Origin: an uncultured Lachnospiraceae bacterium
Lineage (GTDB): Bacteria > Bacillota > Clostridia > Lachnospirales > Lachnospiraceae
DNA: 64,000 bases
Direction: 5' to 3'
Assembly (NCBI GenBank): GCA_947629525.1
Contig: CANREB010000005.1
Span: 13,738 to 77,737, forward strand
Part shown: positions 1-43,748 of the stretch, piece after piece
Layout of the letters: the number at the start of each line of letters is the position of its first letter
How positions within the stretch are numbered: position 1 is the stretch's first letter
Made by a program: the position numbers and the translations under genes
Notes under the pieces: generated by a model
What the model saw: the letters and a program-made list of their open reading frames with translations, nothing else
What the model was told of the DNA's origin: nothing
Database searches by the model: none

Positions 1-320
1 TCTGCTTTTTTCGCTTTGAGGGCGTGATGCTGCCTGCGCTTTTCCTTTTTGGCGCGCTGCTGCTCAAGCTTCTCGGTCTCGGCACGTTTGTTTTGCTCGT
101 ACAACTCGTATATGTTATCGTCAAAGCGTCTTCCGACTATGGATTCAAACTGGTATTTACCGGTTTGCAGTTCCTTATAGATGGCTTCAACGTCTTTGGG
201 GTCGTCAAGCTTGCGGTTACGGGTAATGGAATCGATAAGTGTCTTATCACGCATTGCCGCTTTGTACTCGTCCTCGTTCCTGAAGCGTCTGCCCTCGACA
301 GTCCATTGAAGTTCTGTCAT
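1..320 (-). CDS. hypothetical protein, N-terminal part only (ORF runs off the left edge)
   Basis: ATG at 318-320 (complement) preceded by GGAAAGGAAG. The frame is open to position 1 (MTELQWTVEGRRFRNEDEYKAAMRDK...). It is absent from the ORF track because there is no stop in the window. No family recognised. Confidence 0.45.
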   Translation of the reverse strand, partial: MTELQWTVEGRRFRNEDEYKAAMRDKTLIDSITRNRKLDDPKDVEAIYKELQTGKYQFESIVGRRFDDNIYELYEQNKRAETEKLEQQRAKKEKRRQHHALKAKKA

Positions 321-458
321 TGGGTGTCTTCCTTTCCGATTTTTGAAAAATTGACATAATTGTACAGTTTAATAAAAGTTTACATATACAACTCTATTGT
401 ACTATATTTTTTGATTATTTCAAGTGTTTTTTTTGGGGAATGTGGGGGGAATGTGGGG

Positions 459-636
459 GCGTGTGTGTGTAAAGCCCGTACAGTGTCATACACAGGGTTC
501 AGACTCGCTTGCGCTCCTGAAAAGCGTAGCGGACACTAAGCTCAGCGGCGCCTTGGGGCTTGCTTCGCTAAGTGCCGACGCTTTTCAAAGGTCTGAACTC
601 TGTGTATGACACTGTACGGGCTTTACACACACACGC
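459..636. repeat. long palindromic (hairpin) element, copy 1, inverted relative to copies 2 and 3; the palindrome is extended by GCGTGTGTGTGTAAAG / CTTTACACACACACGC
   Basis: The reverse complement aligns over about 148 nt with 1046-1193 and 2752-2899. The outer 30-bp arms pair 29/30. Confidence 0.85.
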
Positions 637-1045
637 TTTCTTTTGGGGGGGGGAATGCTGGTGGGGGGTGGGGGTGGGGATTTTTTCTTTTTTTGTTATG
701 AGTGAATATTTCTTAAATGTTTTTAGATGTGGTTTTTTCTTTATTGATGTTTACTTTATGCCTTTTCTGACTACTGGTGGAATATTGGCGGACTATATTA
801 CAGCAGTAAGATATTATGTGATTTTGGCAGGGGGGTTGTAATGCGCGCTTTTCTCCATCGTCTGCTTTAGGGGGTGGGGGCTTCCTTTTTGTGTATGTCT
901 GCCGTTTGGATAAGAAAACATTCTCTTATTTGTTTATTTCTTTGGGGGGATTTCTTTTTGCAAAGTGTCTGCGGCGTGGGGCTTGGATGGTTATTTTAGA
1001 CTTAGTGATTATATATTGTTTTCCCTATTGGTAATCAGACACCTA

Positions 1046-1193
1046 GCCCGTGCAGAGGCATACACAGCATTCAGACTTTTGAAAAGCGTCGGCACTTAGC
1101 GAAGCAAGCTGCAAGGCGCCGCTGAGCTTAGTGTCCGCTACGCTTTTCAGAAGCGCAAGCGTGTCTGAATGCTGTGTATGCCTCTGTGCGAGC
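1046..1193. repeat. long palindromic (hairpin) element, copy 2
   Basis: Nearly identical to 2752-2899, with a few substitutions mostly at the extreme ends and the apical loop. Lies just downstream of the rpn-like gene terminator. Confidence 0.85.
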
Positions 1194-1221
1194 GTCACTA
1201 TTGGATGCACCTTAATACGTA

Positions 1222-1269
1222 TAAAAAACAGCCTTACGCTATGTCTGTTAAGGCATGACGTGAGGCTGT
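1222..1269 (-). terminator. putative intrinsic terminator of the Rpn-like gene
   Basis: Stem CAGCCTTACG (1229-1238) / CGTGAGGCTG (1259-1268), followed on the minus strand by TTTTTTAT. Sits 10 nt after the stop at 1279. Confidence 0.5.
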
Positions 1270-1278
1270 TGCTTATTT

Positions 1279-2349
1279 TTATTTCCAGTATTTGTCCATA
1301 TAGTATTGAGCTTTTTGTTGGTCGAGGTCGAATTTCTCGGATATTTTTGAAAGAGTGTCGTCTTTTTTTATGTTAAATTCTTTGCAGGTCTCTATTATGG
1401 ATTTGATGCCTTGTTCTATTCCTTGCTTTATGCCTTGAAGTTTCCCCTGCTCTATTCCTTGTTTTATGCCTTGAAGTTTTCCCTGCTCTATTCCTTGTTT
1501 TATGCCTTGAAGTTTGCCTTCCTCTATTCCTTGCTTTATGCCTTGAAGTTTGCCTTCCTCTATTCCTTGCTTTATTCCCATCGTTACGAACGCATCTGCT
1601 ACTTCACACATTGCTGTTCCCTCCTTGCTTGTGTTGCCTATTTGTAAATACCTCTTGTCACCTGTTATTGATGCTAACGTGTATAGTGTGTCTTTGGTAT
1701 GGATCAATATCTGCTTGTCTTCCCGAAGCATTTTTATCTGTTCTTCTTTATTATATGACTTCTGAAGGAATTTTGCAATACACGCAAAATCTGAACGGAA
1801 GCGTTCTGCTTCTTCATCTGTAAACTCTCGCAGCTTTATCAGATTTAAGCTGTAATTCTGTATATATTTCCTTACGGCGTCATCTTTTGGTATGTCAAGC
1901 ATGTCATGTATACTTTTGGGTATGTTTTCTGTTCCGTAATAAAGCATAAGCGTAATCACGGGTTTGAGTTTCTGTTCGGGATGAAGTACTTTCACGTATG
2001 CTTCGTTTTTATCCTTTTTATTTTTGGTTGTGTACTCCTCTATCTGCCTGTCATATGCGGCGTAGTCGTATCCCATTACTTTAAATGGTGCTGTGTAATC
2101 GGGTACGTATTGGTTTTCCACGCCCCATATCACATACCTGACTCCGTTCCGCACGTCTTCCATGCAGCTGTCGCGGTAGAGTCCCTTTAACCTGCTGTCG
2201 CCTTTTGCCGTACTGCTGTTATTGTAATACGGCTTCAGGCTTTTTTCGTCCAAGACCTGTCTTCCTTCATATATTATCGCATTTATTATGTCTGCAAATA
2301 CATCAGGATGCGATATAAGACTGTTGGACGATAAATCTGTCTGTCCCAT
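1279..2349 (-). CDS. Rpn-family recombination-promoting nuclease / putative transposase (YhgA-like, PD-(D/E)XK), 356 aa
   Basis: Start chosen at ATG 2347-2349 (MGQTDL...), 7 nt after GGGGAGGAA. Family-typical motifs: HPDVFADIINAI, YRD, WGVENQ, KPVITLMLYYG, NLIKLREF. The C-terminus is a G-x-x-x repeat array (GIKQGIEEGKLQ). Confidence 0.8.
   Translation of the reverse strand: MGQTDLSSNSLISHPDVFADIINAIIYEGRQVLDEKSLKPYYNNSSTAKGDSRLKGLYRDSCMEDVRNGVRYVIWGVENQYVPDYTAPFKVMGYDYAAYDRQIEEYTTKNKKDKNEAYVKVLHPEQKLKPVITLMLYYGTENIPKSIHDMLDIPKDDAVRKYIQNYSLNLIKLREFTDEEAERFRSDFACIAKFLQKSYNKEEQIKMLREDKQILIHTKDTLYTLASITGDKRYLQIGNTSKEGTAMCEVADAFVTMGIKQGIEEGKLQGIKQGIEEGKLQGIKQGIEQGKLQGIKQGIEQGKLQGIKQGIEQGIKSIIETCKEFNIKKDDTLSKISEKFDLDQQKAQYYMDKYWK
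1405..1580. repeat. tandem 36-bp coding repeat, about 4.8 copies, inside the Rpn-like gene
   Basis: Unit TATTCCTTGYTTTATGCCTTGAAGTTTNCCYTSCTC repeated head to tail. It encodes (GIKQGIE[EQ]GKLQ)n on the minus strand. Confidence 0.85.
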
Positions 2350-2380
2350 AATTTTCCTCCCCATTATTGTAAAATTTCGA

Positions 2381-2561
2381 GCGATTGCAAAGCATGTTCT
2401 AAGACGTCCGAATTTAGTCAAAATATACAAAAACGCGGTGCTGCTATCGCAATGCACTTCTTAATGTATAGTATTCAGGCGATTACACAACATGTTCTAA
2501 GACGCCCGAATTTAGTCAAAATATACAAAAACGCGGTGCTGCTGTCGCAATGCACCTCTTA
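2381..2561. repeat. two 83-nt direct repeats (2381-2463 and 2479-2561, period 98 nt) in the leader of the Rpn-like gene
   Basis: Direct alignment gives about 76/83 identical. Each copy carries a small GGTGC...GCACC hairpin and the 23-nt segment GAATTTAGTCAAAATATACAAAA. Confidence 0.85.
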
Positions 2562-2584
2562 TTTTGTATATTTTGCCTAAATTC
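2562..2584. repeat. inverted copy of the 23-nt segment found in both 83-nt repeats
   Basis: TTTTGTATATTTTGCCTAAATTC is the reverse complement (22/23) of 2508-2530 and 2410-2432. Confidence 0.8.
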
Positions 2585-2644
2585 TACGTTTTCGAATACA
2601 TCTCGCAATCCCCTTTCCCTGTCAAAATATTTTCTGATATTATA

Positions 2645-2673
2645 ATTATACCATACCGAACATTCATTTGCAA
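2645..2673 (-). promoter_or_regulatory. sigma-A-type promoter reading toward the Rpn-like gene
   Basis: Minus strand TTGCAA-17 nt-TATAAT with TGn extended -10. Predicts a roughly 290-nt leader. Confidence 0.5.
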
Positions 2674-2751
2674 ACATTTGTTCTATTTTTTATAATTATT
2701 TAATACACTTGCGCACACACATATAACGGCAACTACTTAGCAACCACCCAA

Positions 2752-2899
2752 GCCCGCACAGAGGCATACACAGCATTCAGACTTTTGAAAAGCGTCGGCA
2801 CTTAGCGAAGCAAGCCTCAAGGCGCCGCTGAGCTTAGTGTCCGCTACGCTTTTCAGAAGCGCAAGCGTGTCTGAATGCTGTGTATGCCTCTGTGCGGGC
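2752..2899. repeat. long palindromic (hairpin) element, copy 3
   Basis: Perfect 30-bp outer stem CCCGCACAGAGGCATACACAGCATTCAGAC / GTCTGAATGCTGTGTATGCCTCTGTGCGGG, with inner 10-bp stem TGAAAAGCGT / ACGCTTTTCA. Followed by a C-run tail. Confidence 0.85.
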
Positions 2900-2922
2900 G
2901 CCCCTCTCCCCTAAAAACCCCC

Positions 2923-2951
2923 TTGCTTTTCCCCCAAAAAAGTGCCATAAT
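2923..2951 (+). promoter_or_regulatory. candidate sigma-A promoter of asnA
   Basis: TTGCTT-17 nt-CATAAT with upstream TGn, 42 nt before the ATG. Confidence 0.35.
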
Positions 2952-2992
2952 CAAATTAATATAAAATAATCAACCAAAACAGGAGAACAGCC

Positions 2993-4003
2993 ATGAAAAA
3001 ATTAATCATTCCGGACGGTTACAGTTCCGCGTTAAATCTTCATGATACGCAGATAGCGATCAAGACCGTCAAGGACTTTTTTCAAAATCAGCTTGCACAG
3101 CACCTTCATCTTGAGCGCGTCTCCGCACCGCTCTTTGTAGACCCGCTTTCAGGTCTGAACGACAATCTTAACGGCGTGGAACGTCCCGTCGCTTTTGACA
3201 TAAAAGAGCAGGGCGGCAGGCAGGCAGAAGTCGTGCAGTCGCTTGCCAAGTGGAAACGTTACGCGCTTCAAAAATACGGATTTACTGTCGGCGAGGGCAT
3301 TTACACTGATATGAATGCCATAAGGCGGGATGAAGAGACTGACAATATCCACTCAATATTTGTAGATCAGTGGGATTGGGAAAAGATAATTGATAAGGAA
3401 GCGCGCAACATCGGCACTCTCAAATCCACAGTACGCGATGTATACAGATGCCTTAAAAACACGGAAAAATTTATGGCTATCCAGTACGATTACATAGAAG
3501 AGATGCTTCCTGATGATATATTCTTTGTGACCACCGCTGAGCTGGAAGATATTTTCCCCGACTATACGCCGAAAGAACGCGAATACTATATCGCCAAGGC
3601 AAAGGGCGCGGCATGTATAATGCAGATAGGCGGTGAGCTTTCAAACGGCAAGCCGCACGACGGGCGCGCACCCGACTATGACGACTGGGCGCTCAACTGT
3701 GACATAGTAGTATATTATCCGGTACTTGATATAGCTCTTGAGCTGTCATCTATGGGAATACGTGTTGACCGCGACTCTCTCCTGTCACAGCTTGACAAAG
3801 CAGGATGCCCTGAGCGTGCCAAACTTCCCTACCAGAAATCCATAATAGACGAACAGCTTCCCTACACAATAGGCGGCGGCATAGGACAGTCGCGCATATG
3901 TATGTTTTTCCTCAGGAAAGCGCATATCGGGGAAGTCCAGTCGTCAATATGGACTGATGAAGCCGTAAAAGAATGCGAGAAGCAGGGAATACAGCTTCTA
4001 TAG
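2993..4003 (+). CDS. asnA: aspartate--ammonia ligase (asparagine synthetase A)
   Basis: 336 aa. N-terminus MKKLIIPDGYSSALNLHDTQIAIKTVKDFF and overall length are typical of AsnA. SD AGGAGAA upstream. Confidence 0.9.
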   Translation: MKKLIIPDGYSSALNLHDTQIAIKTVKDFFQNQLAQHLHLERVSAPLFVDPLSGLNDNLNGVERPVAFDIKEQGGRQAEVVQSLAKWKRYALQKYGFTVGEGIYTDMNAIRRDEETDNIHSIFVDQWDWEKIIDKEARNIGTLKSTVRDVYRCLKNTEKFMAIQYDYIEEMLPDDIFFVTTAELEDIFPDYTPKEREYYIAKAKGAACIMQIGGELSNGKPHDGRAPDYDDWALNCDIVVYYPVLDIALELSSMGIRVDRDSLLSQLDKAGCPERAKLPYQKSIIDEQLPYTIGGGIGQSRICMFFLRKAHIGEVQSSIWTDEAVKECEKQGIQLL

Positions 4004-37925: not shown

Positions 37926-38849
37926 TCATGGCTGGTAGGACAATAATCTCAGTTCCTCGTTGAGCGCCTCAAGCTGCGTACCAAGACTACAGTCGAAAAC
38001 GCCGCTTCCTGTCTCTATCATACATTCATTCTTACCCATAGTAGAGTCTTCGATGATCTCCACATCGTCAGCCGAAATATTGGTATTCTTGATGAGCTCC
38101 CTCTTCTGCATACTGGCAAAGGGGTAATCCTCTTTTGACACATGTATGAGGTAGCTGCCGCTTCCTTCAATATTGCGCATAGTATTCTGGATAAGATATA
38201 CTATAAGTTCTCTCGAATTTTTAAGACTTACATGGAATATATGCTCGTAGATCCTTGTAAGTGTATCTATAAACCTCGGTTCAAGCTCGTCGAGTTTTTT
38301 CTGATATTCTTTTTCCATCATGGCGATCTTCTGTGACGCTTCCGAAAGCGCCTGCTCGCGCTCCTGCGCCACGCTGTCAAGCCCGTCCTGATGTCCCTGC
38401 TCGAAGCCTTCCTGTTTTCCCTGTTCAAGCCCGTCCTGATATCCCTGCTCTTTTGCCTCATCATAAGCCTGCTGTCTTGCTTCCTCTATCTCGACAAGCG
38501 CGCCCTGCTTCATAAGTTCTATCTGTGACTGCGCTTCCGCGATAAGCTCGTCGGCACGCTTTGATATGCCTGACTGTTCGGCTTCCATTACGCTTCCCTG
38601 CGCCGCGCCGTCGGAATTATCCGTTCCGATGATATTGACGTCATCGTCTCCCGCAAGTTCAGACACCTGCATTGCCTCGATGCCGCCTGTAAATCCGTCT
38701 GCGGCTTCGGGATCGTCTCCAAACTCCTGCGCAAGCTTTACGGCTATCTCTTTTAACCGCTGTTCCGCACGCGCATTTGAGTCTATAACTTTTGTATCGG
38801 CAGGGTTTACTATTACCCAGCCTGATTTTAACACGCCGCTTTTAGACAA
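37926..38849 (-). CDS. fliH: flagellar assembly protein FliH
   Basis: Central charged helical repeats (EQGYQDGLEQGKQEGFEQG) and a FliH C-domain. Lies between fliG and fliI, with an 8-nt overlap with fliG. Confidence 0.8.
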   Translation of the reverse strand: MSKSGVLKSGWVIVNPADTKVIDSNARAEQRLKEIAVKLAQEFGDDPEAADGFTGGIEAMQVSELAGDDDVNIIGTDNSDGAAQGSVMEAEQSGISKRADELIAEAQSQIELMKQGALVEIEEARQQAYDEAKEQGYQDGLEQGKQEGFEQGHQDGLDSVAQEREQALSEASQKIAMMEKEYQKKLDELEPRFIDTLTRIYEHIFHVSLKNSRELIVYLIQNTMRNIEGSGSYLIHVSKEDYPFASMQKRELIKNTNISADDVEIIEDSTMGKNECMIETGSGVFDCSLGTQLEALNEELRLLSYQP

Positions 38850-43605: not shown

Positions 43606-43613
43606 CTGTCAGA

Positions 43614-43698
43614 CAATGTTTCTGTGCCGCACATTGTGAAGCGTACTTTTATAGGCAATGTTTCTGTGCCGTACATTGCGAAACGTTTTTGAATAAGG
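43614..43698 (-). ncRNA. candidate type III antitoxin RNA: two tandem 42/43-nt repeats
   Basis: 43614-43655 and 43656-43698 are about 80% identical. Each has an internal CAATGT...ACATTG inverted repeat. They lie immediately downstream of a consensus promoter. Confidence 0.6.
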
Positions 43699-43719
43699 TT
43701 TGAGCTTCCGCTCATTTTT

Positions 43720-43748
43720 ATTATACTCAAAATATACTAAAATAGCAA
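43720..43748 (-). promoter_or_regulatory. sigma-A promoter of the TA cassette
   Basis: Minus strand TTGCTA-17 nt-TATAAT, with the -10 element ending about 20 nt before the first repeat. Confidence 0.55.

Follow-up and report, generated by a model that had tools for sequence, protein, structure and literature searches.

We identified three copies of a long-hairpin element in the window, the whole 64-kb stretch of DNA analysed here, which derives from an uncultured Lachnospiraceae bacterium (contig CANREB010000005.1). The copies appear to be long-form members of a REP/BIME-like (repetitive extragenic palindrome/bacterial interspersed mosaic element) family in the Lachnospiraceae that acts as single-stranded DNA (ssDNA), a reading to which we assign a probability of roughly 0.5. 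Repeat finding and blastn on the window, with positions 1–3600 read directly, recovered exactly three copies, and a covariance-model scan with filters off found no further copy in the 64 kb. Copies 2 (1046–1193) and 3 (2752–2899) lie in direct orientation and are 96.6% identical. Copy 1 (474–621) is inverted and shows 89–91% identity to the other two; its stem reaches 459–636, with 46-nt arms that are 98% complementary. A first-pass annotation of the same DNA had described three copies, the one at 459–636 inverted relative to the other two, and the repeat searches returned this same set.

In all three copies the outer stem is 31 bp long and encloses a 10-bp inner stem (TGAAAAGCGT/ACGCTTTTCA); the apex is an imperfect hairpin, and a bulge of 13 nt (GAAGCGCAAGCGT) lies on the 3′ side. 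Folding with RNA parameters gave −86 to −104 kcal/mol, compared with about −50 kcal/mol for shuffled sequences (z = −9.8 to −13.9). DNA parameters gave −54 to −63 kcal/mol (z = −9.5 to −13.5) and the same fold, and none of 200 shuffles folded as well as the window copies. With z-scores of −9.5 to −13.9 overall, the long-hairpin architecture proposed in the first-pass annotation is borne out. The strand bearing the T·T and G·A mismatches was taken as the folding strand and is referred to as the canonical strand.

Between copies 1 and 3, a hand count gave 4 differences across the inner 86 nt (95% identity), the value estimated earlier for this part. The outer stem carries 5 differences per 31-nt arm, all on partner positions, and the chance of five changed positions hitting partners is about 1 in 170,000. 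Four of the five changes are fully compensated (C–G to T–A, A–T to T–A, G–C to T–A, and A–T to G–C), and the fifth is an A·C on one strand, equivalent to a G·T on the other; the first-pass count of these changes was exact. Compensation is incomplete at the stem base of copy 2, where three positions are unpaired or wobble, and in three related strains the 3′ arm of copy 3 carries a single T-to-G change that is not compensated.

Covariation was assessed in the 16 long-form copies from which the covariance model was built and in 57 distinct examples of the apical core hairpin. In the cores, 94.7% of the cells were paired, and double-change cells, which are non-independent events because the copies share ancestry, numbered 113 versus 28.5 ± 6.5 after shuffling; sliding the partners left 19–38% paired. 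The long-form copies gave 92.5% paired cells and, with the same shared ancestry, 88 double-change cells versus 30.4 ± 4.2 shuffled, with double changes at 23 of 39 pairs and 30–43% pairing when partners were slid. In neither set did any of the 500 shuffles reach the observed value. The covariation is therefore strong, and it supports the earlier proposal that the structure is kept rather than the sequence. Counts of G·T and A·C in the long form, restricted to stems (20 long-form copies), gave 804 Watson–Crick, 41 G·T, and 7 A·C pairs; the cores gave 416, 21, and 8, respectively, and these counts, too, come from copies of shared ancestry. Because G·T far exceeds A·C, and because the G·A and T·T positions are invariant, selection for folding acts on one particular strand. 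Stem sequences covary freely, and the hairpin irregularities are invariant.

For comparison, hairpin-bearing loci and related strains outside the window (L-numbered names) were examined, about 0.9–1 Mb in total. The core, of 41–42 nt, can be summarised as CACTTAG-N-GA-AGN...NCT-GA-RC-TTAGTG and follows the pattern CACTTA-R-N-GA-NNN-[C-GA-stem-loop-stem-GAA-G]-NNN-GA-N-Y-TTAGTG. It contains a T·T mismatch and two loops, one of tandem G·A/A·G and another that is GA-rich; the apex is usually GAA or of the GNRA type. The tandem GA is present on the 5′ side in 80 of 80 distinct cores and on the 3′ side in 76 of 80. The T·T mismatch is never compensated, while the pairs flanking the loops covary. 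Tetraloops, many of the GNRA type, account for 32 of 83 apical loops, and c(GAA)g, which forms an exceptionally stable DNA minihairpin, is the most frequent apex. Constant across the long-form loci are the apical CGGCACTTAGCGAAGC...GCTGAGCTTAGTGTCCGCTACG, the 3′ bulge YTGAGCGNNAGCG, and the GAC/GTC junction pairs. The inner stem occurs in covarying variants (TGAAAAGCGT, GGGGAGCGT, GAAAAACGC, GAGGAAGCGC, and AGGGCGGCGT), and the outer stems, which range from 8 to about 70 bp (up to 73) across loci and from 20 to 70 bp in the window-type form, are unrelated in sequence yet paired.

The core is also found without long arms, in tandem arrays of up to five hairpins (hp) with subtype-specific linkers. 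Type A arrays have the layout catG[T/C]AGAG-hp1-CGAACGGTACCCGGA-hp2-AAACGGGTACAT, type B arrays have TGATATAATGTGAA-hp1-AGAGCGGTATCTAAG-hp2-CTTA, and the remaining types add a closing stem. Type A relatives carry a G[T/C]AG tag positioned 2 nt 5′ of the hairpin foot (G[T/C]AG+AG), and type B arrays are preceded by TGATATAAT, which resembles an extended −10 element. Strains differ at one locus in having one or two hairpins, and where a second is present its additional 56-nt unit immediately follows TTAGTG. Family hairpins were also seen in a tRNA-Ser-like pseudo-copy beside a genuine tRNA-Ser(cga) at L099 1040–1262 (also in L093 and L112); the pseudo-copy keeps the 5′ GGAGAT and an identical 22-nt 3′ end, and its middle is replaced by the hairpins.

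An exact 18-mer scan with one genome per species matched eight Lachnospiraceae metagenome-assembled genomes (MAGs), and four matches in other phyla were short chance hits. A gapped-pattern scan of metagenomes matched at least 120 contigs, mostly from human gut, and most of these hits cover only model positions 28–70, which correspond to the core. Judging from these matches, true homologues are confined to Lachnospiraceae MAGs and metagenomes. RpsB encoded in the window groups with that of Eubacterium plexicaudatum, which likewise places the source in the Lachnospiraceae. As a rough estimate, 12 extra arrays in 0.9 Mb suggest tens per genome. Rfam gave no match over the elements in the window and eight related loci, either at the gathering threshold or at E ≤ 10, and the earlier statement that no named RNA family or insertion sequence (IS) end is recognisable holds. 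Searches with blastn found no match of the long form or of two short arrays in plasmid and phage collections, and viral contigs likewise gave no match. A literature search by sequence string and by description returned nothing relevant, and this family of intergenic hairpin repeats in gut Lachnospiraceae is apparently undescribed.

The long hairpin as a whole forms a discrete unit, occurring in contexts that are unrelated to one another. Loci L003 and L012, from different species, have in common only a 184-nt element (90% identity), with unrelated flanks, and the element termini (GCCCGNNCAG...CTGNNCGGGC) resemble those of the window copies. Contigs from other samples end exactly at element edges. 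Target-site duplications, a check suggested with the first-pass annotation, were looked for at five insertion sites (copies 1–3, L003, and L012), and none was visible. No precise empty site was found, the closest strains all carrying copy 3. Copies also cluster locally and in tandem. Three long-form copies each, in mixed orientation, occupy a gap of ~700 nt between aspS (with a T-box leader) and gatC at L005 3185–3799 and L006 1457–2081, and two copies are present at L007 277–683; these copies are orthologous across three species, and their stem changes are compensated.

The orthologous loci L010 and L011 are 90% identical with collinear flanks, and the asymmetric central ~110 nt of their element lie in opposite orientation; therefore, the asymmetric centre inverts between its own arms. 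Such arm-to-arm recombination offers a gene-conversion route to the paired changes, beside selection. An inversion of the 1.3-kb segment between copies in L010/L011 was considered and rejected, since the loci are stored in opposite orientation and only the element centre is inverted. The same loci contain a 3′ half-copy (L010 1437–1520; L011 3346–3425) that is broken at the apical loop and shares about 98% identity with the full copy, which lies 1.3 kb from it, and the half-copy and full copy bracket a BNR-repeat lipoprotein gene.

In the window, 86 nt separate the rpn stop codon from copy 2, which follows the rpn terminator, and copy 3 lies between the divergent rpn and asnA (Table 1). Reading along the canonical strand, both copy 1 and copy 3 give way to about 40 nt of C runs, beyond which lies a promoter-like site; the site after copy 1 (423–396, minus strand) precedes a leftward gene with an ATG at 320. 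The first-pass annotation had placed the copies outside predicted transcripts. This holds with respect to the rpn terminator and the predicted promoters downstream of the copies, while a strong plus-strand promoter-like site at 2667–2696 (10/12 match), upstream of copy 3, could include that copy in a transcript. Copy 3 is kept in place in the related strains L145 and L147–L149, and the C tract is shorter in related strains. G or C runs of at least 5 bases number 29 in the window, 11 of which adjoin hairpin copies (444–949 and 2918–2935) as C runs on the canonical strand 3′ of copies 1 and 3; similar C runs occur 3′ of the L003 and L012 elements. The left flank of copy 1 resembles the right flank of copy 3 at about 68% identity over low-complexity sequence, a homology that was treated as weak.

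Table 1. Hairpin copies and associated features in the window
Feature	Position	Strand	Details or basis
Copy 1, long-form hairpin	459..636	− (canonical strand)	Outer arms 474–504/591–621; model score 107 bits, minus strand
Copy 1, additional 15-bp stem extension	459–473/622–636	−	Sequence and fold
Copy 1, core hairpin, 41 nt, CACTTAGCGAAGC...GCTGAGCTTAGTG	534..574	−	Conserved core
Copy 1, inner stem	518–527/578–587	−	Fold
Copy 1, bulge motif GGAGCGCAAGCGA	505–517	−	Sequence and fold
Copy 2	1046..1193	+	Outer arms 1046–1076/1163–1193; inner stem 1080–1089/1140–1149
Copy 2, core and bulge	1093–1133; 1150–1162	+	Sequence, fold, and model scan
Copy 3	2752..2899	+	Outer arms 2752–2782/2869–2899, 100% complementary; inner stem 2786–2795/2846–2855
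Copy 3, core and bulge GAAGCGCAAGCGT	2799–2839; 2856–2868	+	Sequence, fold, and model scan
C-run tract directly 3′ of copy 3	2900..2940	+	Followed by weak promoter-like site 2942–2970, then asnA
C-run tract (plus-strand G runs) directly 3′ of copy 1	420..458	−	Abuts −35 hexamer 423–418
Non-coding spacer, inverted copies 1 and 2	637..1045	.	7 of 29 window G/C runs of ≥5 bases
rpn (Transposase_31/YhgA-like nuclease)	1279..2349	−	Bracketed by direct copies 2 and 3; a neighbour, at most a putative partner

Several further features of the window were recorded. On the minus strand lie 49 of its 51 long open reading frames, asnA is one of two plus-strand genes, and the plus-strand GC skew is −0.14. 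The rpn leader (2376–2568) contains two tandem copies of a 98-nt structured repeat with 88% mutual identity, of which the 95%-identical strain L145 has a single copy; relatives at L003 4179–4275 and 739–788 define a second repeat family. RF02920 (Fusobacteriales-1 RNA) matched at 43613–43739 (minus strand) with 68.5 bits versus a gathering score of 52.1, in what is apparently a Lachnospiraceae genome.

The genes beside 71 distinct arrays have ordinary housekeeping functions, which makes a gene-specific regulatory role unlikely. A role as a regulatory element for asparagine genes (asnA here; aspS–gatC in L005–L007) was considered and rejected, since the neighbours elsewhere are unrelated and include genes for a methyl-accepting chemotaxis protein, a DEAD-box helicase, an ABC permease, QueH, ribosomal proteins, and FtsZ. 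Among 16 GYAG-type arrays, 12 have their first hairpin within 10 nt of the upstream terminator T-run. Short arrays share the direction of the gene upstream of them in 33 of 45 cases and that of the gene downstream in 35 of 46, and this roughly equal co-orientation looks like a bias tied to replication or overall gene direction, not a strict position in the 3′ untranslated region. Long-form copies are more often antisense to their neighbours.

REPs are defined as short extragenic hairpins, often bulged and clustered, with a GT[AG]G guide 0–2 nt from the foot, that are processed as ssDNA by TnpA-REP/RAYT (PMC6006769, PMC8266576). The family described here agrees in that its core is a short hairpin that is always intergenic, and in that it is clustered, with arrays of 2–5 hairpins joined by subtype-specific linkers and three window copies in 2.5 kb. 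Under the REP/BIME-like reading, the hairpin would form in ssDNA and would serve as the recognition structure of a structure-specific protein, following the precedent of the HUH Y1 TnpA-REP/RAYT enzymes on REPs. Such a protein would be responsible for copying or maintaining the repeats. Paired outer-stem changes would then arise from selection for folding together with gene conversion in arm-to-arm recombination, and effects on neighbouring genes through mRNA ends or promoters would be secondary, as for REPs. A role in DNA is favoured by the position right after terminators, the mixed and flipping orientation, the near-perfect 30–70-bp stems, the c(GAA)g apex, and the REP precedent, as well as by the unchanged fold under DNA parameters and the apparent replication-strand bias of the short arrays.

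Several points weigh against this reading. No Y1/RAYT was found by phmmer in about 1 Mb of loci and the window, using approximate IS200, IS608, and E. coli RAYT queries, and no transposase besides Transposase_31 recurs near the arrays. None of the three window copies has a GT[AG]G tag; like every one of the 16 long-form copies, they carry CG[T/C]C+GG in its place. The layout is that of a reversed REPIN, with the apex conserved and the arms variable. Long-form copies have no consistent orientation, the canonical strands in the window being −, +, and +. The copy number per genome is a rough estimate, and the three window copies fall within 2.5 kb of the 64 kb. The promoter-like site at 2667–2696 could place copy 3 in a long asnA leader, and the GNRA-type loops, tandem G·A pairs, and tolerance of G·U would fit RNA equally well.

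The last two points belong to an unlikely but serious alternative, in which the element is a structured RNA, either a small RNA or part of a leader or read-through transcript, whose GA-rich core binds a protein (a regulator, nuclease, or chaperone) and whose long stem is a processing or stabilising element. The strong covariation, the conserved non-canonical pairs, and the tolerance of G·U on one strand are consistent with it, as are the frequent tetraloops, the TGATATAAT motif before type B arrays, the promoter-like site upstream of copy 3, and the co-orientation of most short arrays with their neighbours; many REPs have themselves been argued to act as RNA (PMC3733652). On the other side, there is no Rfam family match, type A arrays directly past intrinsic terminators leave no space for a promoter, about one in four short arrays, like most long-form copies, runs antisense to the adjacent genes, orientations are mixed inside one intergenic region (L005–L007), the centre is flipped between the orthologues L010 and L011, and the neighbouring genes have no functional theme. 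Perfect duplexes of 30–70 bp are also unusual in functional RNAs and would be substrates of RNase III. The ssDNA and RNA roles could coexist, since REPs that are transcribed also act as RNA, and the first-pass view that a REP/MITE-like role in DNA and a role in RNA are both possible still holds (MITE, miniature inverted-repeat transposable element).

The inverted centre of L010/L011, together with copy 1 being inverted relative to copies 2 and 3, might instead suggest an invertible DNA switch or recombination site, with the outer arms acting as a small inverton or the copies as cassette-exchange sites, so that adjacent promoters are altered or the rpn cassette is moved. A promoter-like site does follow about 40 nt downstream of each of copies 1 and 3, direct copies bracket rpn, and a full and a half copy bracket a gene in L010. 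We consider this explanation improbable: recombinase or invertase genes do not recur in the vicinity, no promoter can be recognised in the flipped segment, the short members keep the core yet have no inverted-repeat arms, the orthologues L024/L108/L120 and L005–L007 show no flips, and any perfect inverted repeat of 30–70 bp is expected to flip by homologous recombination, making the inversion a possible by-product. A conventional MITE, with the outer arms as terminal inverted repeats (TIRs) of a DDE transposase encoded elsewhere and the paired changes tracking one transposase, would account for a discrete unit of typical size (148–180 nt) in unrelated contexts, with termini common to the window, L003, and L012 copies. 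It is made very improbable by the missing target-site duplications at the five insertion sites, by arms that vary while the centre does not (other subfamilies having entirely different arms), by the covariation of inner stem and core as a fold, and by the lack of any related IS in the loci, plasmids, phages, or viral contigs. Equally far-fetched in our estimate is a link to Rpn (YhgA-like PD-(D/E)XK) nucleases, with the hairpins as their substrates, targets, or by-products, as in REP–RAYT pairs. Among neighbouring proteins, Rpn/Transposase_31 alone turns up repeatedly beside hairpins in non-orthologous contexts (3 of 71 neighbour families), all five Rpn homologues in hairpin-centred loci have hairpins 54–320 nt past the gene 3′ end in the same orientation, and the window rpn is bracketed by copies 2 and 3. 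Set against this, most arrays have no nearby Rpn gene, the homology of the rpn cassette with other genomes spans window positions 1261–2705 only and leaves out the hairpins, and Rpn proteins are described as toxin–antitoxin antiphage nucleases (PMC10400941). An obligatory Rpn partner was rejected because four loci with close Rpn homologues (70%, 55%, 66%, and 73% identity) carry no hairpin.

With regard to Rpn itself, the window rpn contains tandem 36-nt coding repeats (1409–1588, minus strand; about five copies of GIKQGIEEGKLQ) near the Rpn C-terminus, which resemble the variable 4-residue repeats reported in Rpn toxin/antitoxin antiphage genes (PMC10400941). In tblastn, a region at 38286–38666 (minus strand) weakly matched the C-terminal third of the window Rpn (27% identity, E = 2e-5) and may represent a second Rpn-like gene or merely the repeat region.

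A bolder version of the REP/BIME-like reading, which we regard as doubtful, is that the 42-nt GA-rich hairpin is the recognition module of a novel hairpin-processing system, working on ssDNA or RNA, and the first REP-like one in Firmicutes. In such a system the arms would flip the functional strand, and the partner could be a non-Y1 protein, Rpn-type nucleases being the only recurrent neighbours. Its core, conserved across genera and positioned directly past terminators or shortly before promoters, would in the long form be carried on inverted arms. REP/REPIN systems are known mainly from Proteobacteria, and a REP-like family in the dominant gut Clostridia would extend the class to a major human-associated group. 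The constant core and freely covarying stems provide a clean structural signature for tracing a reader protein. The repeats also break metagenome assemblies, and the copies bracket a defence gene and may mark sites of recombination or cassette exchange. Should the function lie at the RNA level, the family would instead be a new, widespread structured RNA motif.

Among known repeats, the Correia, ERIC, RUP, BOX, and bcr1 elements are likewise intergenic, hairpin-forming, 100–180 nt long, and sometimes located by promoters or terminators, whereas they have conserved TIRs and usually target-site duplications, and the present family has variable arms and no duplication. Of the features of an inverton, opposite orientations of the centre were seen between two orthologous species; the flipped part holds no recognisable promoter, and no invertase lies nearby. 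The subterminal hairpins of IS200/IS605 and the integron attC sites are similar in being strand-specific, in having irregularities that are read by a protein, and in having covarying stems. They differ in that the hairpins here have no adjacent transposase, TnpB, or integrase and no R/L boxes. In attC, moreover, the conserved part is basal, while here it is apical, without GTTRRRY-type boxes or a recurrent integrase neighbour.

The closest likeness is to REP-type repeats. In the survey of tagged REPs, GTAG and CGTC superfamilies, GYAG variants, frequent G·T pairs, and sites downstream of genes were described, and eight phyla were listed, Firmicutes not among them (PMC3733652); Y1/RAYT-type genes have been reported in Clostridia (PMC5581495, PMC6006769). 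The CGTC-tagged REPs (PMC3733652) have, like the window form, a CGTC-type tetranucleotide beside the foot, and no dedicated transposase is known for either. Their stems are 7–9 bp, their loops 4–5 nt, their tails CCA, and their tag is unpaired, whereas here CGYC lies inside the inner stem and the hairpin is more elaborate. The GTAG-type REP/BIME elements of E. coli and Pseudomonas are 35–45-nt extragenic imperfect palindromes with conserved bulges or mismatches, G·T tolerance, and alternating-subtype clusters with conserved linkers, mostly downstream of genes, features that recur in the present family; the G[T/C]AG 0–2 nt 5′ of the foot is found here in type A relatives only. In contrast to REP cores, which are species-specific, the core of this Firmicutes family is conserved across many species, the window form carries CG[T/C]C, and no RAYT gene was found in the examined loci. 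In REPINs, which are long hairpins, compensatory changes are frequent (PMC3116915), and these elements resemble the long form in their length of about 100–150 nt, their tandem clusters, and their candidacy as non-autonomous mobile units. In a REPIN, the REPs form the arms around a variable spacer, whereas here the apex is conserved and the arms are wholly variable. Because of the CG[T/C]C+GG tag and the reversed layout, we therefore do not file the window copies as canonical GTAG REPs or REPINs and describe them as a REP/BIME-like variant.

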